Sequence record: OR352941.1
Reading direction: 5' to 3' (one strand)
DNA: 64,000 bases
Source: Escherichia phage AV111
This document shows positions 10,424 to 56,317 of this stretch, one piece after another. Made by a program: the position numbers and the translations under genes. The notes below the pieces were generated by a model that saw only the letters and a list, made by a program, of their open reading frames with translations, was not told the DNA's origin and did not search any database. How positions within the stretch are numbered: the first letter of the stretch is position 1; every line of letters begins with the position of its first letter.

Positions 10424-11514
10424 CGTTATGTTCGATTGAGCTCGCTAATTCTCAACCCGTTCTCTTATGAACTGCTACATATTACTATGCAGACCAGACT
10501 ATATCACAATCCCGGAGGGATTCTCCCCATTTCGAGTCGCTTGACCCTACGTCCGAAGACTAGTCGTTGAACCTTGCTTTGCAATTGTCGCCGTGCCATC
10601 GTTTATATGTTGATGGTGATAAATCTTTCTTATCACAATATGGACAATTCAATTGAATTCTATTTGGATTTAATTTACATCTGTCATTATGTTTTAGATA
10701 AAATCCAGGACCTTTACCAATGTGACCACAGAAATCACATGTGATTTCTTTTTGTGCAGGATGGGTCCCGTTCTTAACCATTTCTAATGTTTTTGCTGAT
10801 GTTCTTTTCTTATGGTCTTCTGATAAGAAATGATGTGAACCGTCATTTACCCGTTTTGATTGAGTTTCTGACTGCATTTTACCACCGCAAAATACATGAG
10901 TACCTTCTTTTATAGCTGCAATATTACGTTCTTTGACTTTTGCAACATGCTCAGCTTGTTGAAAATTATGTATACCTAATGCAACTCTATTTAAATTAGA
11001 TTTACGTTGTATTTCACCACCTAAAAGATGAAATGTACCATTTTCTATCTTAGATTTAATAGAGGCAATATTTTTAGCTCGTACTTCAGGGATATTAAAA
11101 ATCTGGATTTCTCTAGATTTTGCGGCTTTAGAAGCTAATTCAGAAATTTCTTCAGGAGAATATTTCATTCTAAGCTTTATAGCATGACAAGCCTGGTAAT
11201 CTTTTTGAGCTAAATGTATATCATAATGTTCCTGTATAGAAAGGCACATCAAATTATCTAAATCATTATTTTCACGGTTACCGTCTTTATGATGGATTTC
11301 GTATGTTCTTCCATCAGAATCTTTAGGTATAGGTCCGTTAGCATCTATCCAAATTTTTCTATAGTTCAATTGTGCATCCTCTTAAAAGTATAATCATATT
11401 TATATTATACTAATTAAAGGTGCAAGCAAAACCTTGGCTGCTAGTTTTCCTATAAAGGACTTTCCAGCAATTAAAGGAGTTTTCGATAAACGTTACCGTT
11501 TAAAGGCGCATTTT
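10424..11514 (-). mobile_element. group I intron in nrdB (about 1.09 kb) carrying an I-TevIII-like homing endonuclease ORF
   Basis: Exon 1 ends with U (…UUU GCG U), intron ends with G (…CAUAACG); splicing restores codon UGU and the NrdB reading frame. Confidence 0.7.
10560..11369 (-). CDS. intron-encoded HNH homing endonuclease, I-TevIII-like, 269 aa
   Basis: HNH motif region (YEIHHKDGNRENNDLDNLMCLSIQEHYDIH) plus C-terminal Cys-rich zinc finger (CDFCGH ... CPYCDKK); inside the nrdB intron. Confidence 0.8.
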   Translation of the reverse strand: MNYRKIWIDANGPIPKDSDGRTYEIHHKDGNRENNDLDNLMCLSIQEHYDIHLAQKDYQACHAIKLRMKYSPEEISELASKAAKSREIQIFNIPEVRAKNIASIKSKIENGTFHLLGGEIQRKSNLNRVALGIHNFQQAEHVAKVKERNIAAIKEGTHVFCGGKMQSETQSKRVNDGSHHFLSEDHKKRTSAKTLEMVKNGTHPAQKEITCDFCGHIGKGPGFYLKHNDRCKLNPNRIQLNCPYCDKKDLSPSTYKRWHGDNCKARFND

Positions 11515-12190
11515 ACGCAAAAGATACATAAAAACGAATTGCTTCTAAGGCATTAATAACGTGCAAACAGAGGTAAAGAGATTTCATTAGCTCACGCTTC
11601 CAATATGTCTCATGCTCAATAGCATCTTCAATAACGTCTTCGTCTGCATTAATTTCTTTTTGGTATTCGATATCAGCTTTAGCGTTTTCCCAATAACGAG
11701 CTTTAACCAGAACATCATCATAATATCGTCCGATAGATTCGGCACGCTTCATAATAGCTTCATCTAATACAATCTCATCAAACACCTTCGATGGATCTGT
11801 ATAAAGATTTCGCATAATATGAGTATATGAACGAGAGTGAATAGTTTCACTGAAAGTCCATGTAGCAACCCATGTATCTAATGAAGGGTCTGAAAGCAAT
11901 GACATAAGTACCGCAGATGGTGCTCTACCTTGGATAGAATCTAATAATGATTGATACTTAAGGTTGTTGGTAAAGATGTCCTGTTGGAACTGTGGAAGCT
12001 TATTAAACTGGGCCGAATCCAACATCAAGTTTACTTCCTCGGGACGCCAAAAGAACGAGAGCTGCTTTTCGATAAGCTCTTCAAAAACTTTATGACGCTG
12101 AATATCATACCGTGCGAGGCCAAGACCAGAACCAAAGAACATCGGTTCATTCAAAACATCGACTTGTTGTGTGTTAAAAACTGTACTCAT
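11515..12190 (-). CDS. nrdB: ribonucleotide reductase small subunit NrdB, exon 1
   Basis: Class Ia R2 sequence ... ALEAIRFYVSFA; the in-frame stop immediately after is intronic. Confidence 0.8.
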
Positions 12191-12245
12191 TATATTTTCT
12201 CACCTAGTTATTAACTCATCCATGAGTAAATTATAATAAAAAGTC

Positions 12246-13235
12246 TTAAAGCTTACAAGCAGAACAATCTTCTGCTTTAGGTGTTTCTAATTCATAGTCG
12301 TCTGTACCAGACCCATCACGAGTGTTATGATAGTAGAGGTTTTTTCCGCCAAAGTACCAGAAGTAAAGCAGATCGTCAAGCATTACTGACATTGGCACTT
12401 TACCTTTCTCAAATACTGCAGGGTCATAGTAAGTATTAGCAGAAGCAGATTGGCACACCCATTTCAACATGATAGCAACTTGGGTCAAATAAGGTTTATT
12501 ACCTTTCTTAGCAAGTTTCCACGCGTAGTCGTAAAGACTCATGTTATGTTCTATATTAGGAACAACCTGACGGAAGTTGCCTTCTTTAGATTCTTTAATA
12601 CTTACTGGACCACGTGGTGGCTCAATCCCGTTTGTAGAGTTTGATACTTGACTGCTTGACTCACAAGGCATGAGTGCAGACAACGTTGAGTTACGAATTC
12701 CATGTTCTTTGAGTTCAGCTCGAAGTTCTTCCCAGTCACAGACGTAGTTCGGGGCTGCGATTTGGTCAATCTTTTTATTGTACCAGTCGATAGGTAATTC
12801 GCCTCTAGACCATTTAGTGTCTGAATAATACTCGCAACATCCTTTTTCTTTGGCGAGTTTGATTGATGCTTTGATAAGGCCATATTGCAATCTCTCAAAC
12901 AATTCATGAGTCAAATCGTTAGCGTCTTCATATGAAGCAAAGTTAGAAGCTAACCATGCGGCATAGTTCGTCACACCAACACCGAGGTTTCGACGCTTTT
13001 TAGCTTTTAAAGCTTCTGGAACCGGATAATCTTGATAGTCTAACAGGTTATCAAGTGCACGTACTTGTACTTCAGCAAGTTCATTAATTTTATCTTGGTC
13101 TTGCCAATCAAATTTATCTAATACAAAAGCAGATAATGTGCAAAGGCCCACTTCACCTTTGTTTTCAATAACTTGTATTGTTGTATACTCATCATCTTCG
13201 TAAAATTCATCTACAAATTCATAATCAATATTCAT
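12246..13235 (-). CDS. nrdA: ribonucleotide reductase large subunit, C-terminal piece (nrdA-b), 329 aa with about 26 aa novel N-terminal leader
   Basis: From GEVGLCTLSAF onward aligns to the C-terminal third of class Ia NrdA (…NSTLSALMPCESSSQVSNSTNGIEPP…, C-terminal CSACKL). Confidence 0.8.
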   Translation of the reverse strand: MNIDYEFVDEFYEDDEYTTIQVIENKGEVGLCTLSAFVLDKFDWQDQDKINELAEVQVRALDNLLDYQDYPVPEALKAKKRRNLGVGVTNYAAWLASNFASYEDANDLTHELFERLQYGLIKASIKLAKEKGCCEYYSDTKWSRGELPIDWYNKKIDQIAAPNYVCDWEELRAELKEHGIRNSTLSALMPCESSSQVSNSTNGIEPPRGPVSIKESKEGNFRQVVPNIEHNMSLYDYAWKLAKKGNKPYLTQVAIMLKWVCQSASANTYYDPAVFEKGKVPMSVMLDDLLYFWYFGGKNLYYHNTRDGSGTDDYELETPKAEDCSACKL

Positions 13236-13935
13236 TTAATTCTTCTACCTTTTTTCGAGATATTCCTAGAGCTTTAGATGCTCGATGTATTGATTGATAT
13301 TCTATACCGTTTATTTTTACAGCAATTAAGTTATGGGGTTTTAATCCCTTTGGATGAGGTTTACTGACGTATTCTTGATTATCGTTTTCAGAGATATTAT
13401 CAAGCTTTCGACACTTAAAGCCTTTATGTTGAGACCTTTTGCCTTTGCATACGGCCGACATTGCCGAAGCATTGAGTGAATGTAGTTCGCAAAATTCTCT
13501 TAGGCCTTTATGGATTTCTTCATGACCGTCCGGGAAAGTAAATACCCAAGTTGTTTGAAGTTTTTCTCTATGCTCGTCAGTTACCGGAATACCTTTGTTC
13601 CAAGCTGGTTTGCCTTTATTATTTTCAGATACAGAAATAGCCAATTTTCTTCTAAGCCACCCATGGCGTTTATTGGTGTTCTTTCGTTCAATATTATCTT
13701 CAGAATAAACACACATCATATTAGCGGCAAATACCAATTTATGATTATCTGGATATATCTTTACTAATAATTGATGAGCTATGTAATGCTCTTCGGGTGT
13801 CAAATCTACCAGGTTTTCCTTTGTATCAGAACCACCAATACACAGAGGTATAATATGGTGTGATTCGGTATAGCAATCTAATTTTCTGTTCTTAGCTTTA
13901 GAAATAAGGTTATTGTAAATTTTAGAATAATCCAT
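13225..13935 (-). CDS. HNH homing endonuclease (Mob-like), 236 aa, inserted inside nrdA
   Basis: N-terminal Mob-family signature MDYSKIYNNLISKAKNRKL...HHIIPLCIGGSDTKENLVDLTPEEHYIAHQLL; own start, overlaps the nrdA-b start by 11 nt. Confidence 0.8.
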   Translation of the reverse strand: MDYSKIYNNLISKAKNRKLDCYTESHHIIPLCIGGSDTKENLVDLTPEEHYIAHQLLVKIYPDNHKLVFAANMMCVYSEDNIERKNTNKRHGWLRRKLAISVSENNKGKPAWNKGIPVTDEHREKLQTTWVFTFPDGHEEIHKGLREFCELHSLNASAMSAVCKGKRSQHKGFKCRKLDNISENDNQEYVSKPHPKGLKPHNLIAVKINGIEYQSIHRASKALGISRKKVEELNEY

Positions 13936-13980
13936 AACTTTTCCTCTTGTTATGGATTATTTATTAACGGCCTGTGTACT

Positions 13981-15405
13981 TTATTTGCTTTGAATTATAC
14001 CGCCAGGATTAGCTTCATAAAACTTAGCTACATCCGACTTCTTAATTTTGATTAAACGGGTTTGTTGGCTATTCACATCATTAGTTGGAATAGCGATTTC
14101 ACAACATAAGTTACTTTGACGAATTGGAGCTTTTTCACGAATAAATGGAGTGTAGTTATTCGTGTTATCAACAAACTGCGGATAAATTCGAGCAGTGCCA
14201 GAACGTTCAGTCATGAACAATTCAAAGAGTTCTAGTGCTTTGATTCTTTTCTTTCTGATTGTTGGGTCTTTTTCAGCTTTCTCATAAAGCTCATGGAATT
14301 TATCTTGATCTTCAAAGAACGAGTAGTATAGTTCGCCTGACATTTCGTGAGGGCTAAATAAAGTAATATAATCATTTTTACCAAGGCGTTCCATCATAAG
14401 GTCATTAATCTGAATTCCGTAGTCCATATGTCGAATACGGTTTTCATCTACGCCTTTGTTATTTTTCAGAACTAATAGGTTCTCTACTTCTAAGTGCCAC
14501 ATTGGATAATACGCTGTAGCAGCACCACCACGAATACCACCTTGAGAACAAGATTTTACTGCAGTTTGGAAATGTTTCCAGAATGGAATAACACCCGTAT
14601 GTCGAACTTCACCCATACCGATCTTAGAACCTTCTGCACGAAGCATACCAACGTTGATACCGATACCAGCTCGTTTAGAAATATATTCAATAATTGATGC
14701 TGAAGTTTTGTTAATAGATTTTAACGAATCACCGGCTTCAATAACTACACAACTAGAGAACTGGCGAGTCGGAGTACGAGCACCTGCCATAATTGGAGTA
14801 GGCAATGAAACTTGATGAGTAGAAACGGCATCATAAAAACGAATAATATGTTTCAAACGGTTATGAGTTTCGTCTTGGTGTAAGGCCATACCAATAGCCA
14901 TGATAGCAAACTGGGGAGTTTCATAAATCTTCCCAGTTGTTTTATCTTTAACTAGATATTTTTCTTTAAGCTGCATAGCACCAGCATAAGTCAGGTCAAA
15001 GTCTCGGTCATGTTTAATCTGTGAATCGAGATAAATGATTTCTTCTGCTGAATATTGAGACAACAGCTCAGGGTCATATTTGCCTTCATTAACACAGTAA
15101 GAAATATGGTCGATAAAAGCAGGCGGTTCAAACTGCCCGTATACATCTTTACGAAGTGCAAACATTAGCCCTTTGGCGGCGACATACTGATAATCAGGTT
15201 CTTCGACAGAAATCAAGTTAGCTGCAACTTTAATACAAATCTTCTGAATATCTTTGGTGCTCATCCCATCGACAAGATGGGTCTTAATTTCTTCGTACAA
15301 TTCATATGGGTCAATTTGTGTTCCTTCACATTGCCAAGTTAAGACTTTAATAATTTTCTGTGCATCAAAATTTTGGGATACACCACTGCTCTTATTTACT
15401 TGCAT
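13981..15405 (-). CDS. nrdA: ribonucleotide reductase large subunit, N-terminal piece (nrdA-a), 474 aa with about 29 aa novel C-terminal tail
   Basis: ATP-cone/R1 N-terminus through the active-site strand NLCCEIAIPTNDVN, then diverges and stops. Confidence 0.8.
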   Translation of the reverse strand: MQVNKSSGVSQNFDAQKIIKVLTWQCEGTQIDPYELYEEIKTHLVDGMSTKDIQKICIKVAANLISVEEPDYQYVAAKGLMFALRKDVYGQFEPPAFIDHISYCVNEGKYDPELLSQYSAEEIIYLDSQIKHDRDFDLTYAGAMQLKEKYLVKDKTTGKIYETPQFAIMAIGMALHQDETHNRLKHIIRFYDAVSTHQVSLPTPIMAGARTPTRQFSSCVVIEAGDSLKSINKTSASIIEYISKRAGIGINVGMLRAEGSKIGMGEVRHTGVIPFWKHFQTAVKSCSQGGIRGGAATAYYPMWHLEVENLLVLKNNKGVDENRIRHMDYGIQINDLMMERLGKNDYITLFSPHEMSGELYYSFFEDQDKFHELYEKAEKDPTIRKKRIKALELFELFMTERSGTARIYPQFVDNTNNYTPFIREKAPIRQSNLCCEIAIPTNDVNSQQTRLIKIKKSDVAKFYEANPGGIIQSK

Positions 15406-21294: not shown

Positions 21295-24200
21295 ATGGCC
21301 GACATCAAACGTAAGTTCAGAGCCGAAGACGGTCTGGACGCCGGTGGCGACAAGATTGTTAACGTAGCATTAGCCGACCGTACAGTAGGTACTGATGGCG
21401 TAAACGTTGACTTCCTGGTACAAGAAAACACCGTTCAAGTATATGATTCTACGCGTGGATATAACAAAGGATTTGTTGTTCTTTATGACAACCTTTTATA
21501 TCAAGCAATAAATGATATCGTGTCTCCTTCCGGGGCATTTAACCTTTTACAATGGCGTGCAGTTCGTACTGATGCACAATGGATAACTGTCGCTTCTGGG
21601 ACTTATCAACTTTCTTCAGGTGAATCGATTTCGGTTAACACTGGGGCCGGCAATGATATGGTTTTCACGTTGCCGAATACGCCGGTTGATGGCGATACTG
21701 TTGTTTTGGCTGATATTGGCGGAAGAACCGGGACAGTTAAAGTACAGATTAACGCGTCTGTGCAGAGTATTTTAAACTTTAGAGGTGAACAAGTTCGTAC
21801 AGTTTTAATGACGCGCCCACGTTCACAACTATTGTTTGTGTTTAGTAATCGTTTGTGGCAGATGTATATTACCGATTATGGTAAAGAATCAATCACTGTT
21901 ACACCAGCGTCACCATATCAAGCACAAGCAAATGATTTTATCGTTCGTCGTTTTACTAGTGCAGCACCAATCAACATTACACTTCCACGTAATGCTAACA
22001 ATGGTGATATAATCAGCCTAGTCGATTTAGATAAATTAAACCCACTGTATCATACAATTGTTAAAACATTTGATGATACAACGTCTATTGGTGAAGTCGG
22101 GACTCATATTGCCGAAGGCAGAAATGACTCTGACGCGTTTTTTGTTTTTGATGCTGCAAGTAGTTTATGGCGTATATGGGAAGGCGACCAGAAATCGCGT
22201 CTTCGTATTATCCGTGCGGATTCAAATATTCGTCCAAATGAAGAAGTTCTTATTTTTGGCACAAATAACGCTACAGCCGGAACTATTAATCTTACACTGC
22301 CTACCGGAATTTTGAGTGGTGACACTGTTAAAATTTCAATGAACTACATGCGTAAAGGCCAAACAGTAAAAATTAAAGCTGCCGAAGGTGATACAATTGC
22401 TTCTTCTGTTGCATTGCTTCAGTTCCCTAAACGTTCTGAATATCCACCTGATGCTCAATGGGTCTCTGTTACTGAACTAGAATTCAATGGCACTACTTCA
22501 TATGTTCCTGTATTAGAATTAGCGTATATCGAAGACACCGTTGCTGGTACAAGTTATTGGGTTGTTCAACAAAACGTCCCAACTGTAGAACGTGTCGATG
22601 CATCGAGCAATACAACTCGAGCTCGTTTAGGTGTTATTGCTCTTGCTTCTCAAGCGCAAGCAAATGTTGATTTAGAGAATACTCCAGCTAAAGAAGTGGC
22701 TATTACTCCTGAAACGTTGGCAAATCGTACAGCAACTGAATCTCGACGTGGTATCGCTAAAATTGCTACAACAGCACAAGTTAACCAGAATTCCACAGCA
22801 TCATTTGTGGACGATACTATTGTTACGCCTAAAAAACTAAATGAGCGTACAGCAACTGAAACTCGTCGCGGTCTTGCTGAAATTGCTACTCAGGCCGAAA
22901 CCGATGCTGGTCTTGATGACACAACGATTATTACACCTAAGAAATTGCAGGCACGTCAGGGCTCTGAAACACTATCTGGTATAGTTAAATATGTATCAAC
23001 TACTTCTGCTACTCCTGCTGAAACTCGTGGGGCCGCAGGCACTAACGTTTATAATAAAACCGTAAATAATTTAACTATTTCTCCTAAAGCCCTTGACCAA
23101 TATAAAGCAACTTATGCTCAACAAGGTGCAGTAATTTTAGCTGTTGATAGTGAAGTAATTGCTGGTCAATCCCAAGCAGGTTATTCTCACGCTGTAGTAA
23201 CTCCTGAAACACTACATAAGAAAACTTCTACTGATGGACGTATTGGTTTAATTGAAATTGCTACGCAAGCAGAAACTAATGCTGGGACTGATTATACACG
23301 TGCAGTAACGCCTAAGACGTTAAATGATAGGAAAGCTACGGAAGGATTATCCGGCATAGCCGAACTTGCTACGCAAGTTGAATTTGATACTGGAACTGAT
23401 GATACTCGTATCTCGACTCCACTGAAAATTAAAACTCATTTTGATTCTTCTGACCGTACCAGTGTTAATTCTGATTCCGGACTTATTGAAGAAGGAACCT
23501 TGTGGAACCATTATACTCTTGATATTTCTAAAGCAAATGAAACACAACGCGGTACACTTCGCGTAGCGACCCAGGCAGAATCTAATGCAGGAACTTTAGA
23601 TGATGTTCTTATTACTCCTAAAAAGCTTTTAGGGACTAAGTCCACTGAAACGTCTGAAGGTGTAATTAAGGTTGCTACTCAAGATGAAACTGTAACGGGA
23701 ACTTCCACTAATACTGCTGTATCTCCTAAGAATTTAAAATGGATTGTCCAGTCTGAACCAACATGGGCTGCTACTACAGCAATTCGCGGATTCGTTAAAA
23801 CTTCATCCGGTTCTATTACATTTGTTGGTAATGATACAGTTGGTTCAACACAACCTTTAGAATCATATGAAAAAAATAGCTATGCTATATCTCCATATGA
23901 ATTAAACCGTGTACTTGCTAACTATTTGCCATTAAAAGCAAAAGCTGCTGATAGTAATTTGTTAGATGGTCTAGATTCTCTTCAGTTCATCCGTAGAGAC
24001 ATCGACCAGACGGTTAATGGTTCTTTAAGTCTTACTAAACAGACCAACCTGAGTGCTCCTTTAGTATCTACAAGCACTGCTTCTTTTGGTTCCGAAGCAT
24101 CTGTTACTCGTAGATTAACTCTTAATGACTCTAGCGGTTCCGAAATAATTTTCACTAAAGGAACCCAATCTCTTAGTAATAAAGAGAATTTCGTTGTTAG

Positions 24201-25128
24201 AGCATGGGGTAATAGCGCTACAGATGGTGCCCGTGATACAGTATTTGAAGCGGGTGACGAAACCGGATACCATTTCTATTCTCAGCGCGCTGCTGATAAT
24301 AAAGTATCATTTAATATTAATGGAACACTTTATTCAACAGGTATTGTTTCTACAAATGGATTAAATGTTACGGGTGTTTCTACCTTTACCGGGCCTATTA
24401 GTGCTACAGGCGAAATTGTTTCTAGTTCTCCTATTGCATTCAGAGCTATTAACGGTAACTATGGTGTTATGCTTTATAACGCTGGTAACAGTTCTTATAT
24501 TGCATTAACTAACTCAGGTGACCAGACCGGGACGTTTAATAACTTACGCCCGATCACGATTAACAACGCCACAGGCTTAGTTCGTCTTGACAATGGTGTT
24601 CAAATCACAAGTGGTGCAACAATAACTACCGGCGGGTTAACTGTAAATAACAGAATTATTTCTAACGGCGTTAAAACTGCCACGGTTTATACCGATAAAC
24701 CAACAGCTTCTACTGTAGGTTTTTGGTCTATTGACATTAACGATTCTGCTGTATATAGCCAATTCCCTGGATACTGGACGCGTGATAACAAAGGTAACCG
24801 TGACCAAGAAATTAAATATCCTGGTACTTTGACTCAATTCGGCAATAGCTTAGATTCGCTTTATCAGGATTGGATTTGTTATCCTACGGGTGCAAATGGT
24901 GGTAGTATTCGTTATACTCGTACCTGGCAGAAAAATAAAGATGCTTGGACTTCATTTGCAATGGTATTTGATAGTGGCAACCCACCTTCACCTAGCGATG
25001 TCGGTGCTATCCCATCTGATAATGCTGTTATTGGAAACCTTACTATTCGAGACTTCTTACAATTAGGAAATGTGAGAATTGTTCCGGACCCGGTTAACAA
25101 AACAGTTAAATTTATATGGGTTGAATAA
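21295..25128 (+). CDS. 34: long tail fibre proximal subunit gp34, 1277 aa
   Basis: Size, position after rnh, repetitive tail-fibre-type sequence. Confidence 0.9.
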   Translation: MADIKRKFRAEDGLDAGGDKIVNVALADRTVGTDGVNVDFLVQENTVQVYDSTRGYNKGFVVLYDNLLYQAINDIVSPSGAFNLLQWRAVRTDAQWITVASGTYQLSSGESISVNTGAGNDMVFTLPNTPVDGDTVVLADIGGRTGTVKVQINASVQSILNFRGEQVRTVLMTRPRSQLLFVFSNRLWQMYITDYGKESITVTPASPYQAQANDFIVRRFTSAAPINITLPRNANNGDIISLVDLDKLNPLYHTIVKTFDDTTSIGEVGTHIAEGRNDSDAFFVFDAASSLWRIWEGDQKSRLRIIRADSNIRPNEEVLIFGTNNATAGTINLTLPTGILSGDTVKISMNYMRKGQTVKIKAAEGDTIASSVALLQFPKRSEYPPDAQWVSVTELEFNGTTSYVPVLELAYIEDTVAGTSYWVVQQNVPTVERVDASSNTTRARLGVIALASQAQANVDLENTPAKEVAITPETLANRTATESRRGIAKIATTAQVNQNSTASFVDDTIVTPKKLNERTATETRRGLAEIATQAETDAGLDDTTIITPKKLQARQGSETLSGIVKYVSTTSATPAETRGAAGTNVYNKTVNNLTISPKALDQYKATYAQQGAVILAVDSEVIAGQSQAGYSHAVVTPETLHKKTSTDGRIGLIEIATQAETNAGTDYTRAVTPKTLNDRKATEGLSGIAELATQVEFDTGTDDTRISTPLKIKTHFDSSDRTSVNSDSGLIEEGTLWNHYTLDISKANETQRGTLRVATQAESNAGTLDDVLITPKKLLGTKSTETSEGVIKVATQDETVTGTSTNTAVSPKNLKWIVQSEPTWAATTAIRGFVKTSSGSITFVGNDTVGSTQPLESYEKNSYAISPYELNRVLANYLPLKAKAADSNLLDGLDSLQFIRRDIDQTVNGSLSLTKQTNLSAPLVSTSTASFGSEASVTRRLTLNDSSGSEIIFTKGTQSLSNKENFVVRAWGNSATDGARDTVFEAGDETGYHFYSQRAADNKVSFNINGTLYSTGIVSTNGLNVTGVSTFTGPISATGEIVSSSPIAFRAINGNYGVMLYNAGNSSYIALTNSGDQTGTFNNLRPITINNATGLVRLDNGVQITSGATITTGGLTVNNRIISNGVKTATVYTDKPTASTVGFWSIDINDSAVYSQFPGYWTRDNKGNRDQEIKYPGTLTQFGNSLDSLYQDWICYPTGANGGSIRYTRTWQKNKDAWTSFAMVFDSGNPPSPSDVGAIPSDNAVIGNLTIRDFLQLGNVRIVPDPVNKTVKFIWVE

Positions 25129-36704: not shown

Positions 36705-36730
36705 TTTGTTTTCCTCTTGATTTGATGTGA

Positions 36731-36762
36731 TTACTATACCATAATCCTATCGTGATGTAAAC
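36731..36762 (-). promoter_or_regulatory. T4-type early promoter
   Basis: plus-strand gtaaac 36757-36762; ttactatacc 36731-36740. Confidence 0.4.
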
Positions 36763-36954
36763 AATTAAATTACATTAAAATATGTTAAAGCCAACCATGT
36801 TCCAGTGAACGAACATGCAATGTAAAAACCAGTATCACAAATTGTTCTTAGTACAATAAGAAGTGCATTTTTCATAAGTACCTCAATGCAATTGAAAATA
36901 TTATACAAATCATAGGGATACTAAGCAACCATATTCCAATCCACATTTTAGAGC

Positions 36955-41572: not shown

Positions 41573-42673
41573 TTACGCTGTGAAGATTTTATCCCACATC
41601 GCAACAACTGCATCTCGATTATACTTCTTCCATACTGCTTCAGCACGTTTAACTCGAGCTTCGTATGTGTCAGTGAATTCTAATACAGCTTTTGTGTAAA
41701 GCGCAACTACTTCTTTCTTAGGAGTAGAGGAATCAATTTCTACACGCACAGTATCTGGGTCGTATTCGAATGTCGCATGAGGATAATCCTTAAAAACTAA
41801 CTGGATTACAGGGACACCTTTAGAAATGGCTTCAATAGAACTATTCTCTACCGTACCTGTGTCAGGACACGTATTAATAAGTGCTTTAGCTGTTTTAAGA
41901 CGTTCCATGATTTCACTGTGTGGAGCATCAATAATAACAGGATATTTAGCTGGTGGTGCCCATTTGCTTGGACAATAACCAATACCATTTTCGCCTAGTG
42001 CTTTAATTGCTTCAAGAGCAACATCAGTGCGACGCATCTTAGTGTCATAACGTTGAGCACTAATAATCAAATCAGTTGCCGGGAGAACTTCTGGCTTTTC
42101 AGACAAACAAATAACCGGGTAGTCATCAGGTTCAAATAATGGATTTTCGCGCCAGTAGTCATAATCAATTTTGTCAGTCAGACCTGAAGTCATATAACAA
42201 TATTTGCGTTCAAATTCACGGAAGGCTTTAGTAGGAGCATAGCTCTTCCCGCCGTTCTTGTGAATCTGGATAGTCTGATCCCAAATTTGAACAATACCAC
42301 GAGACACCGGTTCAAACGGCGTAGCCATAAAATTCTTATGAACTTTAGAGAGTCCAGCATCTTTAATTGCCTGAACGGTTAGTTTAGTCGGTTCCATAGT
42401 AACAACAAAATCGTATTCATGGATGCCGGCTAGTTCAACAATCTTACGAGCCATAGTATAACTCATACCTAGACTGAATTTAGTCAGATGACCAACAGGA
42501 TGATGATTAACCTTCCAATCACCAAACGTGTCATTATCAAAGCCGATATAATCAATATCAGCACCGATGGACACAAGATATTTCAACACATTTAAATGTA
42601 CTGCTTCAAGACCACCTTGTACACGGTCAGGATTAAATGGGACTGCACGAGATGGGATAAACATAACTTTCAT
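41573..42673 (-). CDS. putative glycosyltransferase (GT-B fold, GT4-like C-terminal motif), 366 aa
   Basis: C-terminal ETGTVENSSIEAISKGVPVI resembles the E-x7-E / EAxxxGxPVI sugar-donor motif of retaining GT4 enzymes; no counterpart in the T4 rIIA-39 interval as I recall it. Confidence 0.45.
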   Translation of the reverse strand: MKVMFIPSRAVPFNPDRVQGGLEAVHLNVLKYLVSIGADIDYIGFDNDTFGDWKVNHHPVGHLTKFSLGMSYTMARKIVELAGIHEYDFVVTMEPTKLTVQAIKDAGLSKVHKNFMATPFEPVSRGIVQIWDQTIQIHKNGGKSYAPTKAFREFERKYCYMTSGLTDKIDYDYWRENPLFEPDDYPVICLSEKPEVLPATDLIISAQRYDTKMRRTDVALEAIKALGENGIGYCPSKWAPPAKYPVIIDAPHSEIMERLKTAKALINTCPDTGTVENSSIEAISKGVPVIQLVFKDYPHATFEYDPDTVRVEIDSSTPKKEVVALYTKAVLEFTDTYEARVKRAEAVWKKYNRDAVVAMWDKIFTA

Positions 42674-42698: not shown

Positions 42699-42718
42699 GA
42701 AGCTCCCGAAGGAGCTTA
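42699..42718 (-). terminator. hairpin AAGCUCC-UUCG-GGAGCUU 3' of the HNH gene
   Basis: aagctcccgaaggagctt at 42700-42717. Confidence 0.4.
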
Positions 42719-43528
42719 GGACATCCAACACATTTTATAACCTTTGCAGGTTCTGTTAGGATTATTTAATGCTTTCAATATATTAGAAGACCCTATATCT
42801 AAATACTCTCTTAATTCATAAAGATAGTTAAAATCAATAGTTTCACCTGTTTTTACACTTGTGATTCTTATAGGCCTTCTTTCATATTTAGATTTATACA
42901 ACTCTCTAGTCTTAGCTTTAGTTTCTTCTGACCTAGGAGTGTATGGTTTAAATCCTTTTGTTTTAAATGTTTCCATTCTTGATTTAGTTATTTTATCCCG
43001 GTGTTCTTTTGTTTTTACAGGTGCTTTTCGCCCATTCTCCCGAGATAACTTGTTGGCCTGTATTATTTTATCTATTGCTTCTTGCGTATGAGTTTTACCA
43101 TAAAATGGATTTAATTCGCCTATACGTTGTGAAGCAATATGTGACATTAATTCTCTTGTTGCTTTAGTATGTTTTTTACCTTTAAATGGGTTGCCATTTT
43201 TAGCAATCCATTCTTTCATAAATCTAGAGTGCTCTTTAGAGAATTCTTGTTTAAGCCAATCATAATCTCTAGAATTTCTAGCTCCCATGTAAAAAGCTCT
43301 AATAGCCATAAGCATAGAACGGTTCTTATGAATTTTATAAAGCAATAAATGGGCGATAAAATGCTCTCTAGGGGTCATTTTAACTAGATTTGATTTAGCA
43401 TTACTCCCGCCCATAGATTTAGGCAAAATATGGTGAGTTTCAGTATAATTAGGAATAGTGCTGCGGTTTTTAGCCGCAGCGATAAGTTTATCATAAATTT
43501 TACGATAATTCATTATCCTAGCATCCAA
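42716..43528 (-). CDS. HNH homing endonuclease (MobA-like), 270 aa
   Basis: Mob-family N-terminus MNYRKIYDKLIAAAKNR...HHILPKSMGGSNAKSNLVKMTPREHFIAHLLL plus NUMOD-like repeats (NPFKGKKHT, NPFYGKTHT). Confidence 0.8.
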   Translation of the reverse strand: MDARIMNYRKIYDKLIAAAKNRSTIPNYTETHHILPKSMGGSNAKSNLVKMTPREHFIAHLLLYKIHKNRSMLMAIRAFYMGARNSRDYDWLKQEFSKEHSRFMKEWIAKNGNPFKGKKHTKATRELMSHIASQRIGELNPFYGKTHTQEAIDKIIQANKLSRENGRKAPVKTKEHRDKITKSRMETFKTKGFKPYTPRSEETKAKTRELYKSKYERRPIRITSVKTGETIDFNYLYELREYLDIGSSNILKALNNPNRTCKGYKMCWMS

Positions 43529-45333
43529 TCTTTACGGAGTTCAGGGTCGTTACCCATGAGCATTTCAAATAGTTCTTTCCAATTTTCAGGAAGTTTAACT
43601 ACGTCGTACACAGGGTTTTGAATCATTTCTTTATATTCATCTCGCTGAAGTGAGCCCAATCCCTTGATGTATCGAATACTATGCTTAGGCAGTGTATCTT
43701 TAACTTCTTCATACTCAGCTACAGTATAAAACCATTTTTGAGTTTTGCCAATTTGTGCAATAATTACAGGCGTTTTAACAAAGCGAATACGTCCTTGTTC
43801 AAACAATTCAGGCCAATTACTAAAGAAAGCAAGCAAAGCCGGATAAATGCTTCCAAGACCGTCATGATCGGCATCGGTCATAATTGCAATATTACGATAG
43901 TTCGTATTCTCTGCCTTTTCACCAAGAATAAGACCTGTGATAGCACAGATATCAAAGAGCTCTTTGTTCTTCATCATATCAGCATATGACATACCCCAGC
44001 TATTCATCACCTTACCACGTAATGGGAATCCGCCGTGTAGTTCACGGTCACGAACATCAATGAGATAACCAATTGCCGAATCACCTTCTGTTAAGAACAA
44101 TGTTGTATCTGCATCTTTACCACATTGGTTAGCTTTAATATGCTTATGAACCTTAGCTTTAGTTGCCTTTTTAGCTGCTTTAGTTTCTGCAGCCTTTTCT
44201 GCTGCCAATTTACGAGCTAATGCTGCTTCAACAATAGGCATAATCAAGGCTTCGTTTTTAAGAAGTGCCTGAGCAATTTTCTTAGCATCTAATTGGATAT
44301 GATTACGAATATCACCATACGTTGACGTTAAACGTTCTTTAGTCTGAGAATCAAAACGCATGTTGCTCATGTCTCTAATAAACATCAACATTGTGAGACA
44401 TTCTTTAACACGAGCTTTAGTGACTTCAATACCCTTATATTTCTTTTTAATACCTGGCAAAAGATGTTCGCAGATATCATCCATTACGCATTCAACATGA
44501 TGACCGCCGTTTTTAGTATGGATGTTATTCACATAAGTTAAATGACGGAAGCCATCTGGTGATGTTGTGAATGCTATAGAGACTTTATCATTTTCTTGAA
44601 TGATGTTATCTTCACCAAATTGTTTAGCAAATCGTTTAAAATTACCATCAACCTTTTTACCATTAAATGTGAACTTGATATCAGGATAAACGACTGCCAA
44701 TGTTTGAAGTCGATCTAAAGTAATATCTAAATAAATTTGAGATAAATTATGCTCTTCAAATGAAGAGAAATCAGGAGTGAAGATTACTTTAGTGCCTTTA
44801 CATTTAGATTTCTTAGAAGACCATGATTTGTTTTCCATTCCGTTTGAACAGTTAACAGTGATTTCATTTTCGCCATCTGACGTGATGCCTGTAAACAACG
44901 TAGAGAAGATATTAGTTAAACTACTCCCGACGCCGTTCATACCACCAGTCTTGCGTTCAGAATCATCACCAAAGTTACCACCAGCCTTTGGAATAGTCCA
45001 GGCTGCTACAGGCCCAGGAATTTGTTCACCTGTTTGGTCGGTAACTAAACCTTGAGGAATACCACGTCCGTTATCTTCCACCGAAACTTGATTATTTTTA
45101 ATTTGCACGTCAATTTTATTTGCAAACTTAAATGATGTACGAATAGCTTCATCAACCGAGTTGTCAATAATCTCATCGATTAATTTAACCAGACCAGGAA
45201 CATATTCAACTTGTTGATATTTACCAAACAAAAAACGCTCGTGGGCTTCTTTGGCCGAAGAACCAATATACATGCCACTACGTTTCTTAATATGTTCTAC
45301 ATCTGACAGTACCTTAATTTCATTTTTAATCAT
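43513..45333 (-). CDS. 39: DNA topoisomerase II large subunit gp39 (GyrB-like ATPase), 606 aa, single uninterrupted ORF
   Basis: GHKL ATPase N-terminus and TOPRIM region; corresponds to T4 39 plus 60 combined. Confidence 0.9.
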   Translation of the reverse strand: MIKNEIKVLSDVEHIKKRSGMYIGSSAKEAHERFLFGKYQQVEYVPGLVKLIDEIIDNSVDEAIRTSFKFANKIDVQIKNNQVSVEDNGRGIPQGLVTDQTGEQIPGPVAAWTIPKAGGNFGDDSERKTGGMNGVGSSLTNIFSTLFTGITSDGENEITVNCSNGMENKSWSSKKSKCKGTKVIFTPDFSSFEEHNLSQIYLDITLDRLQTLAVVYPDIKFTFNGKKVDGNFKRFAKQFGEDNIIQENDKVSIAFTTSPDGFRHLTYVNNIHTKNGGHHVECVMDDICEHLLPGIKKKYKGIEVTKARVKECLTMLMFIRDMSNMRFDSQTKERLTSTYGDIRNHIQLDAKKIAQALLKNEALIMPIVEAALARKLAAEKAAETKAAKKATKAKVHKHIKANQCGKDADTTLFLTEGDSAIGYLIDVRDRELHGGFPLRGKVMNSWGMSYADMMKNKELFDICAITGLILGEKAENTNYRNIAIMTDADHDGLGSIYPALLAFFSNWPELFEQGRIRFVKTPVIIAQIGKTQKWFYTVAEYEEVKDTLPKHSIRYIKGLGSLQRDEYKEMIQNPVYDVVKLPENWKELFEMLMGNDPELRKDWMLG

Positions 45334-52655: not shown

Positions 52656-52674
52656 TTAGGTTTCTCCTGTGGTT

Positions 52675-52712: not shown

Positions 52713-53294
52713 CTAAAAATTCAACATTTTCAAATGAATGATTTTGTATAATCGAGATAAAGGGTCATATTCTAAGTCTTCAATTTCCACAATCTCAAAT
52801 CTAGAGATACCTGAGACCATGTACTCTTGTTCAGATTCAATCATATCTAGGACGTCAACACGCTTTTCTTCCATAATATGCTTAGGGTTCTTTCCGGCGA
52901 GTACAATGTTAACCATGTTTTGGTAGTAATCAAAAATGAATGGAGCATTCCTGAGACTAAGAATAGTGTACGTCTGATACTCCCAACTCCCAGAGAATTG
53001 ACGAGCTGTACTGAAATCAGTTGTGAACGATGTTACTCGTCCAGGAGACCAATGACATCCAACAGAAAGAAGTGAAAGACGTTCTACTTCTTCTGGAGTT
53101 ACACCACGGTAGAGTTCTACTGGTACTGTAGAAGTCATATGCTTACGAACAAGATGGTCTAATTCATAGTGGAAATCCGGGTCTTCCTTAGAATCGGTGC
53201 AAGCCCAGAGAATGTTTTGTTCTTGTTTAGTGAATTTGCTATCAATCAGATTTGTTAGGTATTCACGTTCTTGAAGTTCAGATTGACATGTCAT
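52713..53294 (-). CDS. modB: ADP-ribosyltransferase (ModB-like), 193 aa
   Basis: ART signature YRGVT, SFTT, EQEYMVSG. Confidence 0.6.
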   Translation of the reverse strand: MTCQSELQEREYLTNLIDSKFTKQEQNILWACTDSKEDPDFHYELDHLVRKHMTSTVPVELYRGVTPEEVERLSLLSVGCHWSPGRVTSFTTDFSTARQFSGSWEYQTYTILSLRNAPFIFDYYQNMVNIVLAGKNPKHIMEEKRVDVLDMIESEQEYMVSGISRFEIVEIEDLEYDPLSRLYKIIHLKMLNF

Positions 53295-53309
53295 GATAGA
53301 CCTCCATTT

Positions 53310-53349
53310 AAAGATAAGCCTATCATAACACGAGAGGAGGGAATGTAAA
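53310..53349 (-). promoter_or_regulatory. T4-type early promoter
   Basis: plus-strand gtaaac 53344-53349; ataagcctatcataacac 53323-53340. Confidence 0.35.
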
Positions 53350-53510
53350 CTACTTTTTAAGCTTTCCTACTAAAGGTCCATCAGGGCCAGGTTGTTCTAA
53401 CATGAATAACGATGCTTTAAAAAGCAATGTTAACCCTTTCACCATTCGATACCATGTCTCAAAGTCTTTTTCCTTGATTTCTAGTAAAAATTTCTCTTTC
53501 AATTTATCTT

Positions 53511-53699
53511 TCATTTCCAAGGACTCCATGGTGGAGGGTCGTCATAATAAGAGGCAAGGTCTTTCAGGGCTTCAACAGGTAAACTAAAGCCGTGTCGTTG
53601 TATAATACTATCTAGTTCATCAACAAGTTCACTACGATGCACTTTAGGAGCCTCAACTTCAGGCTCGTCAAACATACTCATAAGGTCCATATTATTCAC
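53511..53699 (-). CDS. hypothetical acidic protein, 62 aa
   Basis: ORF track. Confidence 0.4.
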   Translation of the reverse strand: MNNMDLMSMFDEPEVEAPKVHRSELVDELDSIIQRHGFSLPVEALKDLASYYDDPPPWSPWK

Positions 53700-54156
53700 C
53701 TAAATAAAAACTAGGCTGCTCGGAGAATGTTTCTAGCGCTACACCTTTTGTCTTAAAAAATTTCCAAATAGCTCGTTGCAAATGGATTAAATCTGCTAAT
53801 GATGTAATAAAGTATTTTTTGGCAAAATACTTATGGTCTCGATTTTCAAACAAGTCTAAACGCTTTTCAGGATTCACATAAACGGCATTTTCCGTAGATT
53901 CATAACCTAAGTCCTTTATGCCTTCTTCAAGACTAAACGGAGAATTTTTAGAATGAGTAATAGCTCCAACTCGCTCTACACGAATTTTGTAACCTTTAGG
54001 AATCTGCAATTTGCAGAATTCTTCTACGATATATTGCGGATTATTTAGACTTTTGTTAATGAGAATAGCTATTTCTAGTGGAGTCTTATCTTCTACTGGT
54101 ATATGTTTAAATGACTTGGCTTCAAGCAAATACATTTTAAATAACATAGCATCCAT
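53692..54156 (-). CDS. hypothetical protein, 154 aa
   Basis: ORF track; GAGGAAATTATAATG start context. Confidence 0.5.
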   Translation of the reverse strand: MDAMLFKMYLLEAKSFKHIPVEDKTPLEIAILINKSLNNPQYIVEEFCKLQIPKGYKIRVERVGAITHSKNSPFSLEEGIKDLGYESTENAVYVNPEKRLDLFENRDHKYFAKKYFITSLADLIHLQRAIWKFFKTKGVALETFSEQPSFYLGE

Positions 54157-54161
54157 TATAA

Positions 54162-54335
54162 TTTCCTCGATGGTTCACCCATATAAAGTTTTACAATACG
54201 TTCGCCTTCATCTTCGACGAGCTTTTCTTCATGTTTCTGGAATTCTTTAGCCATATTCTCTTCAAGAACATCCAGCCAATCTTCTGGTCCGACACCATCA
54301 TTCCAGCTTTTAAACCATTTTACTATTCTGTTCAT
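54162..54335 (-). CDS. hypothetical protein, 57 aa
   Basis: Hand-translated MNRIVKWFKSWNDGVGPEDWLDVLEENMAKEFQKHEEKLVEDEGERIVKLYMGEPSRKL; GGGAG SD. Confidence 0.35.
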
Positions 54336-54533
54336 TCGCAGCTCCCTGAGTCCGAACTACAATCGGAATAACTTGAACCAGAATCTCCAGACCAGGATGA
54401 TACGTAAGAATGATTATAACTTGAAGAGTTTGAAGCAGACTTAGGACGAATAACTTCTTCCATCATGCCGTCACCAATGTATTCCCAACTTTTTTCATGT
54501 GTATCAGGAATAGGCATCATACCTTCGCCTGGT

Positions 54534-54761
54534 TTAGCAGCAAACAACTTCTTCAGCATCGTAAGCATTAATTGTTCCTCGAACAAAACGAACACCACCA
54601 TCATCCCAACGGATTTCGGCATTAAATTTGACGTCTTCACCATCCATCATGAATGAGTGTACGACTACGTCATCATAATATCCAAGACCGTATTTCAACG
54701 AAACTTCTTGTGCAATCAAAGCGCCTAATGTGTTATTAGGTTTAATCCAACGATTTAACAT
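54534..54761 (-). CDS. hypothetical protein, 75 aa
   Basis: ORF track; early promoter upstream. Confidence 0.45.
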   Translation of the reverse strand: MLNRWIKPNNTLGALIAQEVSLKYGLGYYDDVVVHSFMMDGEDVKFNAEIRWDDGGVRFVRGTINAYDAEEVVCC

Positions 54762-54789
54762 ATTGTTTTCCTCTTGAGTAAGTAAGAAT

Positions 54790-54822
54790 ATCTTAACACA
54801 GTTTTTAGTGGATGTAAACTCT
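54790..54822 (-). promoter_or_regulatory. T4-type early promoter
   Basis: plus-strand gtaaac about 54817-54822; agtaagaatatcttaacac 54781-54799. Confidence 0.35.
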
Positions 54823-54824
54823 AG

Positions 54825-54856
54825 AAACGAAAAAAGGAATCCCGAAGGATTCCTTA
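54825..54856 (-). terminator. terminator 3' of soc (AGGAAUCC-UUCG-GGAUUCCU + U-rich)
   Basis: aggaatcccgaaggattcct at 54835-54854. Confidence 0.5.
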
Positions 54857-54862
54857 AATTAT

Positions 54863-55099
54863 TTAACCACCTACTTCCGTGGGTGTGAACATTGCTTTGT
54901 TCTTAGTACGCCAATCTGCTGCGTCAGTCACCACAGTAGTGTAAGCAGCTTTTTCAGACGGGAAAGTCTGATAATGAGCATCAGCAATTCGGTGCTCATT
55001 TGAGTAAATCTCAAACGGTACAGAAACTTCCATACCTTTAACTTCTTTACCTTCACCAGCAGGATGCGTAAAGGTTTTGATGTTTACATAACCACCCAT
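54863..55099 (-). CDS. soc: small outer capsid protein Soc, 78 aa
   Basis: GYVNIKTF and AHYQTFPSEKAAY match T4 Soc. Confidence 0.85.
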   Translation of the reverse strand: MGGYVNIKTFTHPAGEGKEVKGMEVSVPFEIYSNEHRIADAHYQTFPSEKAAYTTVVTDAADWRTKNKAMFTPTEVGG

Positions 55100-55130
55100 A
55101 ATTAACTCCTTTGTTGTTTAATTACAGGTG

Positions 55131-55138
55131 TATTTATA
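55131..55138 (-). promoter_or_regulatory. late promoter TATAAATA (minus strand) for soc
   Basis: plus-strand tatttata in the 45-nt gap between gene 56 stop and soc start. Confidence 0.6.
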
Positions 55139-55144
55139 ACTTAA

Positions 55145-55666
55145 TTAGTAACCATTATCCTGACGTTCAAAGTTGTGTTGGTTTTTCAAGTAGTAAAGTT
55201 TAAAGATTTCTTCTGCTGTAAGACCAAGACCCTGGAACATATTCAGAACGAAATGAAGAATATCAATCATCTCAAATTTAATTTCAAGCTGGTCTTCAGG
55301 AGACAGTTCATCGATACGACGATTTCGATATTCAGCATGTTGTGCTTTCCATGGCTTCCATACAGAGCTAGCGGCTTTTTCACCATTGCTCATACCGCCA
55401 AGTGAAGTCAGCAGTTCACGGAATTCGTCATCAATATAATCTTTCTGATTACGCAGCCAATCAACAACATCGCCTGCAGTGGCCAATTCATCAGGATGTT
55501 TGTTATGTTCAGGCTTGTCATTTGCCAGACGAACCTGTAAAGATTTCTGCATATCAAGCATTACCTGCAGTGGGTCTTTATCTTCGTGAATCAGAGCATT
55601 AAAATAAGCTTCTTCTGCTTTATCAACGCCTTCGATCAGTTGACTACATTCGTTGAAATGTGGCAT
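55145..55666 (-). CDS. 56: dCTPase / dUTPase gp56 (dCTP pyrophosphatase), about 173 aa
   Basis: MPHFNECSQLIEGVDKAEEAYF...DPLQVMLDMQ...ELATAGDVVDW... near-identical in outline to T4 gp56; own SD AAGGAAA upstream of ATG 55664-55666. Confidence 0.85.
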   Translation of the reverse strand: MPHFNECSQLIEGVDKAEEAYFNALIHEDKDPLQVMLDMQKSLQVRLANDKPEHNKHPDELATAGDVVDWLRNQKDYIDDEFRELLTSLGGMSNGEKAASSVWKPWKAQHAEYRNRRIDELSPEDQLEIKFEMIDILHFVLNMFQGLGLTAEEIFKLYYLKNQHNFERQDNGY

Positions 55667-56317
55667 GTTATTTTCCTTTCTTATGAAGTTTTCTATCATA
55701 TGTCTATAGCAGATATTAGGATAACCTGCCTTGACAGCTATTTTATTAAATTTTGTGCGCTTAGGTCTATTATTATAAACCCATAATTCATAAAGCGCAT
55801 CATAACTATTCCATATTTCTCCTCGCCTAGGATTTGGTAAACCATATCGAGGCGAATTTTTACCGCTAAATCTTCCTTTTCGGGCTTTACTCATATTAGC
55901 CTTGGCTTCATCGGATATAATTTTACCTTTATGAGCTAGACGCATTTTAGCTTTAGTTTCTTCTGGAGTCTTTTTACCTTTAATCCATGACGGCTTGCCA
56001 TATCTAGGATTATTTTCACCCGAGAAAAGAACAGAGTTTTGGATTTTAAGGGTTTCTATTAATCTACTTGTTAATTTAACACCTTTATTATATCGCATTA
56101 AATTTACAGCATAATGCAATCCTCTCACATCTGGATATATTTTAGTTAATAATCTATGAGCTATAAAATGCTCACGCGCAGTTAACTCAACAAGATTGTT
56201 TTTGCCATCTGCTCCTCCCATACATCTAGGAATTATATGATGGCGTTCTTTATATCCGCAAAGCCGCCGGCATTTAGCTTTTGTAATTAAAGCAGAGTAA
56301 ATTTTTTGGTAATTCAC
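55145..56317 (-). CDS. Mob-like HNH endonuclease ORF (N-terminal about 217 aa) reading in frame, with no stop codon, into gene 56
   Basis: ORF track gives one 390-aa frame; N-terminus MNYQKIYSALITKAKCRRL...HHIIPRCMGGADGKNNLVELTAREHFIAHRLL is the same family as the nrdA-internal and 39-adjacent HNH ORFs. Confidence 0.6.
   Translation of the reverse strand: MNYQKIYSALITKAKCRRLCGYKERHHIIPRCMGGADGKNNLVELTAREHFIAHRLLTKIYPDVRGLHYAVNLMRYNKGVKLTSRLIETLKIQNSVLFSGENNPRYGKPSWIKGKKTPEETKAKMRLAHKGKIISDEAKANMSKARKGRFSGKNSPRYGLPNPRRGEIWNSYDALYELWVYNNRPKRTKFNKIAVKAGYPNICYRHMIENFIRKENNMPHFNECSQLIEGVDKAEEAYFNALIHEDKDPLQVMLDMQKSLQVRLANDKPEHNKHPDELATAGDVVDWLRNQKDYIDDEFRELLTSLGGMSNGEKAASSVWKPWKAQHAEYRNRRIDELSPEDQLEIKFEMIDILHFVLNMFQGLGLTAEEIFKLYYLKNQHNFERQDNGY

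Follow-up and report, generated by a model that had tools for sequence, protein, structure and literature searches.

The window analysed here is a stretch of 64,000 nucleotides from the 172,602-bp genome of Escherichia phage AV111, a Mosigvirus and relative of T4, and our subject is the set of HNH homing endonuclease genes (HEGs) that it carries. Four open reading frames (ORFs) with an HNH motif are present, all on the minus strand (10560–11369, 13225–13935, 42716–43528 and 55145–56317), as had been proposed earlier from the letters of the sequence alone (hereafter, the original prediction); coordinates below refer to the minus strand unless the plus strand is named. A six-frame regular-expression scan of the window for HH..N..EH returned exactly four motifs, and denA was the one GIY-YIG gene to appear. 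The 390-, 474-, 329-, 236- and 265-aa products match AV111 proteins exactly (WPK34241.1, WPK34183.1, WPK34181.1 and others), and GenBank already annotates all four HNH genes of AV111 as homing endonucleases. In the phage collection, its close relatives also belong to Mosigvirus, their genomes being 94–98% identical.

The four genes fall into two families. The copy in nrdB matches Pfam HNH_3 (6e-13) and phrog_12324 (1.7e-192, residues 1–269 of 269), and the copies at nrdA, gene 39 and gene 56 belong to phrog_655, 'homing endonuclease' (E values of 1e-55 to 1e-60). On the latter three, which are of the Mob type, the Pfam HNH models give sub-threshold scores only. All three contain the pattern ExHHI[IL]P..GG.....NLV..T..EH.IAH; the consensus quoted for them in the original prediction is roughly right, except that the nrdA copy reads IGG and not MGG. 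The C-terminal module is NUMOD3 in the gene 39 copy (1.1e-9) and the gene 56 copy (7.2e-6), and that of the nrdA copy is of the I-HmuI NUMOD-like type (8.1e-8). Differing C-terminal DNA-binding modules would give each Mob-type enzyme its own target. In an AlphaFold2 (AF2) model of the gene 56 HNH protein, the predicted local distance difference test (pLDDT) score exceeds 93 for residues 1–70, which form two strands and then a helix, and the top Foldseek matches in the PDB are HNH domains, although the matches are weak (E 0.47, probability 0.91). For the shared catalytic domain of about 60 residues, we infer a beta-beta-alpha-metal fold.

The nrdA copy breaks its host gene into two genes that would be translated separately and have each gained a tail, a point that the original prediction missed. 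Intact Mosigvirus NrdA has 751 aa, whereas AV111 has ORFs of 474 and 329 aa. As delimited by ORF, Pfam and alignment to intact NrdA, the N piece (474 aa; 13981–15405) consists of NrdA residues 1–445, followed by a tail of 29 aa, and it carries Cys219 and Cys434/435. The C piece (329 aa; 12246–13235) begins with an acidic head and then takes up NrdA again in the loop that precedes the Cys462 equivalent, its Cys32. Homology to intact NrdA ends after Asn445 (ending in SNLCCEIAIPTNDVN) and restarts at GEVGLC, and the split site lies between the Cys439 and Cys462 equivalents. What stands there, in place of the four codons GPDA of intact nrdA, is a mobile cassette of 913 nt (13158–14070). It comprises the basic tail of the N piece, SQQTRLIKIKKSDVAKFYEANPGGIIQSK (29 aa, pI 10.0; 13984–14070), a 45-nt spacer with a hairpin, the MobE-type HNH gene of phrog_655 (236 aa; 13225–13935), and the acidic head of the C piece, MNIDYEFVDEFYEDDEYTTIQVIENK (26 aa, pI 4.1; 13158–13235). 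The spacer extends from the stop of the N piece to the HNH start, and the HNH stop overlaps the start of the C piece by 11 nt. The GC content of the cassette is 33.8%, versus 38–40% in its flanks, and the 55-nt spacer between nrdA and nrdB is empty in AV111.

A 13-bp hairpin covers the start of the HNH gene in the cassette (13926–13961; dG −13.8 kcal/mol, z −3.4), and only 2 of 200 shuffled sequences fold as well. Its loop holds the Shine-Dalgarno sequence and its 3' arm the start codon of the HNH gene; a late-promoter box close to the consensus, AATAAATA, overlaps its 5' arm. The hairpin probably restrains translation of the endonuclease from early transcripts. RNA folds upstream of the gene 39 and gene 56 HNH genes are no better than those of shuffled sequences.

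In nrdB, a group I intron of 1091 nt (10424–11514) is an exact insert relative to the intron-less nrdB of phage ZQ3, and alignment with ZQ3 places exon 1 at 11515–12190 and exon 2 at 9921–10423. The insert has the ends expected of a group I intron: the 5' splice site follows a U, and the last base of the intron is a G. Rfam at gathering thresholds gave zero matches in the whole window, and a permissive search gave a sub-threshold match of Intron_gpI to the 3' core at 10475–10715 (33.8 bits, E 1.6e-6; gathering score 50). Inside the intron lies the I-TevIII-type HNH ORF (10560–11369; HNH_3, phrog_12324), which has 269 aa and a TTG start. It is full-length; the truncated 97-aa form of the T4 type corresponds to its residues 173–269. 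A hairpin at 11350–11440 (dG −17.9 kcal/mol, z −2.3) pairs the I-TevIII ribosome-binding site and contains an exact late-promoter box, TATAAATA (11397–11404). This box occurs seven times in the window against 6.8 expected, which is the chance level, and the one in the I-TevIII hairpin is the only one that is meaningful in its context. A late promoter within a hairpin is a known arrangement of T4 intron endonucleases (PMC2988022). I-TevIII of RB3 (full-length and active) and of T4 (truncated) resembles the 269-aa ORF in its nrdB group I intron and in its late promoter with hairpin. Judged by its full-length match to phrog_12324, the AV111 copy is an ordinary member of the I-TevIII family. A mini-ORF of three codons (ATG CAC AAT TGA; 11366–11377) directly follows the Shine-Dalgarno sequence and overlaps the I-TevIII TTG, and it might affect initiation there.

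The gene 39 copy is a free-standing Mob-type HNH gene lying in the last codons of its host. The ORF described in the original prediction is present, but translation probably does not begin at its TTG (43528); the ATG at 43513 is the most likely start, as annotated in relatives, and gives a product of 265 aa (42716–43513). Gene 39 itself (43513–45333) is an unsplit, T2-type gene for the topoisomerase II large subunit of 606 aa. Compared with the HEG-less phage KMB38, the insert is located in the last codons of gene 39, with TGGATG at both junctions. The new end of gene 39 reads ..WMLG-stop, its TAA overlaps the HNH ATG (TAATG), and AGGA stands upstream; the last codons of the HNH gene, W-M-S-stop, are the original end of gene 39. 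The insert brings a ribosome-binding site together with the TAATG stop-start overlap, an arrangement that would couple translation of the two genes. A substitution patch of about 21 changes occupies the last 130 nt of gene 39 (43521–43651); it is common to HNH carriers and absent from non-carriers, and the 650 nt upstream of it are at least 99% identical to genomes without the HNH gene.

At 95% identity or more, the gene 39 HNH protein is found in 27 phage records, the next-best matches falling below 80%, and it is absent from all 80%-coverage records among the close relatives listed. MobD (36%) and MobE (44%, N-terminus) of T-even phages match parts of it, so that it is distant from the Mob proteins tested, namely MobD and MobE. 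The annotation of phage AV118 divides the gene into fragments of 143 and 116 aa, apparently a decaying copy in a sister phage. An element of the mobA/gene 60 type was considered for this locus and rejected, as gene 39 is one 606-aa ORF with the insert in its last codons. The T4 mobA/gene 60 cassette (Bonocora et al. 2011; bioRxiv 10.1101/2022.08.31.505936) likewise has a Mob-type HNH gene at the topoisomerase large-subunit gene, and, like the AV111 copy, it is promoter-less and read from the transcript of the host gene. Unlike that system, gene 39 of AV111 is whole, with no bypass element and no tails. Directly downstream of the HNH gene, a 366-aa ORF (41573–42673) is annotated in relatives as a glycosyltransferase or 'putative hmC-arabinosyltransferase', which bears on the type of DNA modification.

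The gene 56 copy is a Mob-type HNH gene of 217 codons with a GTG start (55667–56317), which separates the ATG of gene 56 from its original Shine-Dalgarno sequence. The original prediction described it as fused to gene 56, and it is indeed in frame with that gene and has no stop, giving an ORF of 390 aa. Within this ORF, gene 56 (dCTPase, 173 aa; 55145–55666; dUTPase_2) keeps its own Shine-Dalgarno sequence and ATG. Relative to the HEG-less phage G2469, it is an exact insert of 651 nt, with the GAAAGGA Shine-Dalgarno sequence on one side and the gene 56 ATG on the other. The HNH gene takes over the original Shine-Dalgarno sequence, and a second GAAAGGA at its 3' end serves gene 56. Orthologues in the same place show 98% protein identity in many Tequatrovirus phages and 92% in T4-like phages of Klebsiella. 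Between the primase gene and this HNH gene lies a hydrophobic 65-aa ORF on the plus strand (56406–56603), which is conserved, and hypothetical, in SSE1, G2469 and G50.

A patch of 15 substitutions at the 5' end of gene 56 (55628–55670) is identical to the sequence flanking the HNH gene in Tequatrovirus G50. The first ~45 nt of gene 56 differ from G2469 at these 15 positions, of which only A2P and S12E alter the protein, and past the patch about 140 nt of gene 56 are identical to the HEG-less Mosigvirus G2469. Taken together, the HEG and the first ~45 nt of gene 56 show about five differences from G50 in ~650 nt, while the flanks diverge. As these alignments read, the patch maps out a co-conversion tract, some 45 nt long, from an intergeneric transfer, and the gene 56 case is a clean example of intergeneric homing. 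T4 SegF targets the gene 56 area and causes localised marker exclusion with co-conversion (Belle et al. 2002), which matches the patch in AV111. However, SegF is a GIY-YIG/HNH hybrid of another enzyme family, and its gene lies between 56 and soc, on the opposite side of gene 56 from the AV111 HNH gene.

Comparison of the four loci among Mosigvirus genomes supports the proposal, made in the original prediction, that these are homing endonucleases at hotspots. Each gene is present or absent among genomes that are 95–98% identical, with exact junctions. The free-standing copies each adjoin a short, dense patch of substitutions in the host gene (gene 56, gene 39 and nrdA), and the HEG ORFs have 32–34% GC versus 37–40% in the host genes. 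The nrdA and gene 56 cassettes are 97–99% identical across genera, whereas their flanks are far more diverged. In T4, the same neighbourhoods are occupied: mobE and I-TevIII are found at nrdA/nrdB, mobA within the topoisomerase gene, and segF beside gene 56 (PMC2988022). In a mixed infection, the enzyme would cut the HEG-less allele, and recombination of the T4 type would repair the break from the carrier genome, copying the endonuclease gene and a short flank. The co-copied flank would render the new site resistant to further cutting. We therefore read the window as carrying four independent selfish HNH homing endonuclease genes, one intron-encoded and of the I-TevIII type and three free-standing and of the Mob type (phrog_655), and from the sequences we give this reading a probability of roughly 85%. 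Four HNH genes in 64 kb are not unusual; T4 carries 15 such genes in 169 kb (PMC2988022). The biology is ordinary for T-even phages, and both the nrdA cassette and the stop-loss fusion, though of some value as details, belong to known kinds.

Several points weigh against this reading. We infer the activity of all four enzymes from their intact ORFs, conserved catalytic residues and population patterns. The nrdB intron falls below the Rfam gathering threshold and its catalytic core is weakly supported. The predicted structure lends weak support to the gene 56 HNH protein, AF2 being confident for residues 1–70 only. The late-promoter-like box before the nrdA HNH gene has one mismatch to TATAAATA, and scans for sigma-70 or consensus promoters and for terminators around the loci are at chance level. 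Moreover, the loss of its stop codon may mean that the gene 56 copy is starting to decay.

That loss is also the first argument for the explanation that survives best after homing, namely that some or all of the four genes are immobile, being decaying relics or co-opted genes (for example, regulators) kept by their linkage to essential genes. Precedent for decay comes from T4, in which I-TevIII and mobA are defective (PMC2988022), and from the truncated gene 39 HNH versions of 116–143 aa in AV118. In AV111, however, all four ORFs are full length with intact catalytic residues, and the near-identity of cassettes across genera implies recent transfer. The differing end points of the nrdA cassette in AV111 and JM17, described below, suggest repeated events. 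We regard immobility as unlikely, though it is the alternative to be taken most seriously.

The origin of the gene 56 fusion raises a separate question. In G50, the HNH gene ends in ..GAAAGGAAAAATAAC-ATG, with its TAA one base before gene 56. The AV111 junction, GAAAGGAAAATAACATG (55664–55680), has one A fewer than the Tequatrovirus copy, GAAAGGAAAAATAACATG. One A is missing in both AV111 and SSE1; therefore, the TAA stop is lost and the HNH frame runs into gene 56. The 'fusion' thus stems, as the aligned junctions read, from the loss of a single nucleotide, a detail that had escaped the original prediction. A difference of one A in a run of A (A4 versus A5) is a classic type of error, and the endonuclease might simply end at its own stop, as in Tequatrovirus, if the homopolymer had been misread in sequencing or assembly. 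A run of four or five A is, however, short for systematic errors, and the stop-less state recurs in three separately deposited records. The 390-aa protein is present in at least three records (AV111, SSE1 and an E. coli-labelled contig of 170,875 bp; 40 cluster members listed). AV111 and SSE1 have about five differences in the HNH ORF and 96.2% identity over the surrounding 3.4 kb. The frame is stop-less in SSE1, the sole Mosigvirus copy in the phage collection, and in two other records with the gene 56 flank of the window, whereas the Tequatrovirus and Klebsiella-phage copies match only to residue 215 of 217, and G50, the one examined at the nucleotide level, has its own stop. We consequently give an artefact little chance of being the explanation.

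With a genuine loss of the stop, ribosomes starting at the HNH GTG would have to make an HNH-dCTPase fusion, and normal dCTPase could still start at its own ATG. One lost base would thus have been enough to join a selfish gene in frame to an essential host gene. The chimera may be functional, for instance by tethering the endonuclease to the dNTP-synthesis/replication complex, which we consider less likely than the reading of the nrdA insert given below. A search of 5.8 billion protein clusters for other HNH-dCTPase fusions gave none above 59% query coverage among the matches listed (the best 120 of 475).

Including its tails, and outside one central segment, the nrdA cassette is 97–99% identical to that of Tequatrovirus e11/2, whereas the flanking nrdA is 78% identical. 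A central segment of the HNH gene (13369–13585; 217 nt, aa ~117–190), which encodes the NUMOD-like module, exists as two alleles: that of AV111 is shared with HY01, and the other, 68% identical to it, is carried by e11/2 and by the Mosigvirus JM17. Two central alleles in a near-identical cassette suggest module exchange within the endonuclease. Downstream of the cassette, donor-type sequence reaches about 30 nt further in JM17 than in AV111 (compared with 13100–13160 of the window); the recombination end points differ, and separate recombination events are therefore suggested. The HNH copy is linked to 5 changes in 18 nt of nrdA. Its protein has 34 records at 80% identity or more in the phage collection, and an identical protein occurs in phage HY01 and 26 contigs.

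A ribonucleotide reductase (RNR) 'in pieces' of this kind is said to have been described by Friedrich et al. in 2007, as the 'genes-in-pieces' mobE, nrdA-a and nrdA-b of phage Aeh1. In that phage, the break made by mobE falls between Cys431 of the first nrdA piece and Cys31 of the second, and the basic (pI 10.4) and acidic (pI 3.8) tails are both essential for reductase activity (Crona et al. 2011, PMC3045599). The Aeh1 locus used for direct comparison lies at 41.5–44.6 kb of the Aeh1 genome; its 175–215 kb stretch is without nrdA. The split point is the same in the two phages, with Cys219, Cys434/435 and Cys32 in AV111 corresponding to Cys219, Cys431 and Cys31 in Aeh1, and so is the layout, with a spacer of 45 or 46 nt and an HNH gene that overlaps the second piece. 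Aeh1 MobE is 48% identical to the AV111 protein and collinear over the full length (237 versus 236 aa). The tails are homologous, the N tails sharing L[IF]K[IV]KKS[DE]V.KF and the C heads YED[DE]EYTT[IV], and have the same opposite charges (pI 10.0 and 4.1 in AV111, 10.4 and 3.8 in Aeh1). When the tails alone were aligned, the N tails scored 42, a value reached by 5 of 20,000 shuffles, and the C heads scored 64, reached by none of 20,000 (composition-preserving shuffles). Aeh1 also has a hairpin at the HNH translation start, but the AV111 hairpin hides the AUG and that of Aeh1 the Shine-Dalgarno sequence, and the two are unrelated in sequence (Crona 2011). Aeh1 is an Aeromonas phage, whereas the hosts of the AV111-type cassette are coliphages of Mosigvirus and Tequatrovirus. 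By homology with Aeh1, the two NrdA halves would be translated separately and would reassemble non-covalently, with the tails needed for activity.

T4 MobE belongs to the same catalytic family and the same neighbourhood, and the MobE proteins of T6, LZ7 and RB3 are 44–45% identical to the AV111 protein over the N-terminal ~125 residues. However, T4 mobE sits in the nrdA-nrdB intergenic region and targets nrdB (PMC2790892), whereas the AV111 gene sits inside nrdA. MobE insertions with conserved tails in "several other Myoviridae" are mentioned, as unpublished, in a 2022 preprint.

The cross-genus identity of the AV111 cassette shows directly, at the level of sequence, that the assembly tails of a split RNR and the gene responsible for the split move horizontally as one unit. 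For Aeh1, this had only been a hypothesis. This co-travel, and the conservation of the tails from Aeh1 to coliphages, support the idea that the mobile element brings its own antidote, in a tractable system. On balance, we lean slightly towards regarding the nrdA insert as an actively homing, self-neutralising gene-splitting module, composed of an endonuclease, antidote tails and a translation-blocking hairpin, in a family that spans Aeh1 and two genera of coliphages. If this is true, pairs of Mosigvirus phages with and without the cassette, 97–98% identical, make the origin and function of the tails directly testable by phage genetics in E. coli, a question open since 2011.

RNR genes often host introns and inteins, and an intein-remnant origin of the tails was raised by Crona et al. 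(PMC3045599). The interruption might then be a self-splicing intron or an intein, perhaps a degenerate split intein, that restores a continuous NrdA. We searched 1.84 billion representative proteins for relatives of the C piece and examined the 150 nearest. Twelve of them open with a canonical split-intein C fragment (..ILVHN followed directly by C, at the Cys439 equivalent), and three (P0254, P0256 and P0265) have non-intein heads just before the Cys462 equivalent. In AV111, however, the N piece ends in a stop, and the spacer of only 45 nt, together with the overlap of the HNH gene and the C piece, leaves no room for an intron core; Rfam gives no match in the nrdA region. With 55 aa between them, the tails are too short for a HINT fold, and the head ends in ..IENK and is followed by G instead of Cys, Ser or Thr. 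Splicing of any kind is accordingly very improbable here. The acidic head was also tried as an intein remnant and rejected, as its score against a hidden Markov model of nine split-intein C fragments is −0.2 bits, a value equalled or exceeded by 1585 of 2000 shuffles.

As these relatives read, the active-site region of nrdA is a recurrent fission point. A tblastn search with the metagenomic P0254 against cultured phages found no phage that carries a split variant of the P0254 type. The 'fractured' nrdA genes with split inteins (Dassa et al. 2009, PMC2677866) are likewise broken close to the active site, an endonuclease gene separates their two parts, and electrostatically complementary fragments were proposed. 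They are cut at the Cys439 equivalent with intein motifs (..HN followed by C), whereas the AV111 split is 11 residues further on and its tails have no intein signal.

The three Mob-type copies had been described as sharing near-identical N-termini of 60 aa, whose repeated DNA could serve as a substrate for intragenomic recombination. Neither statement holds. Over about 61 aligned residues, the proteins are 59, 62 and 57% identical, and the N-terminal coding DNA is 63, 61 and 60% identical; the longest exact nucleotide runs between the three 5' regions are 9, 12 and 11 nt. Searching the whole window for repeats (seed 12, minimum 30 nt) gave no link among the three N-terminal coding regions. The sole repeat family touching the HNH genes, D7 (70–73% to its reference), covers the C-terminal NUMOD-coding part of two of them. 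The similarity is therefore conservation of a protein family and not of DNA, the outcome that the original prediction had itself named as counting against the recombination concern. The common residues E24, H26, H27, P30, G35, N41, E49, H50 and H54 are invariant across 61 diverse homologues, and the resemblance is accordingly that of a family catalytic domain and not of a recent duplication. Orthologues of each copy at the same locus in other phages are 98–100% identical, versus about 60% for its neighbours in the window. Recombination in T4 reportedly drops sharply under ~50 bp of homology, as Singer et al. are said to have found in 1982. Although the copies share a recognisable 60-aa motif and a single PHROG family, the low DNA identity, the short exact runs, the unlinked N-terminal regions and the far closer orthologues elsewhere leave next to no chance that they are recent intragenomic duplicates whose 5' DNA drives ectopic recombination, and the concern about genome stability raised in the original prediction is removed.

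Other repeats are dispersed in the window. Families D1–D5, of 36–58 nt, occur between 711 and 61283 (for example, at 36717–36771, 59307–59361 and 60836–60871); on the minus strand they resemble GTTTAC, ~17 nt and TATAAT, that is, T4-type early promoters ahead of minus-strand genes. The direct repeats D6 and D11 (73–86% identity; 22726–23409, plus strand) lie within a 1277-aa ORF of the plus strand (21295–25128), which probably encodes the protein of the proximal long tail fibre.

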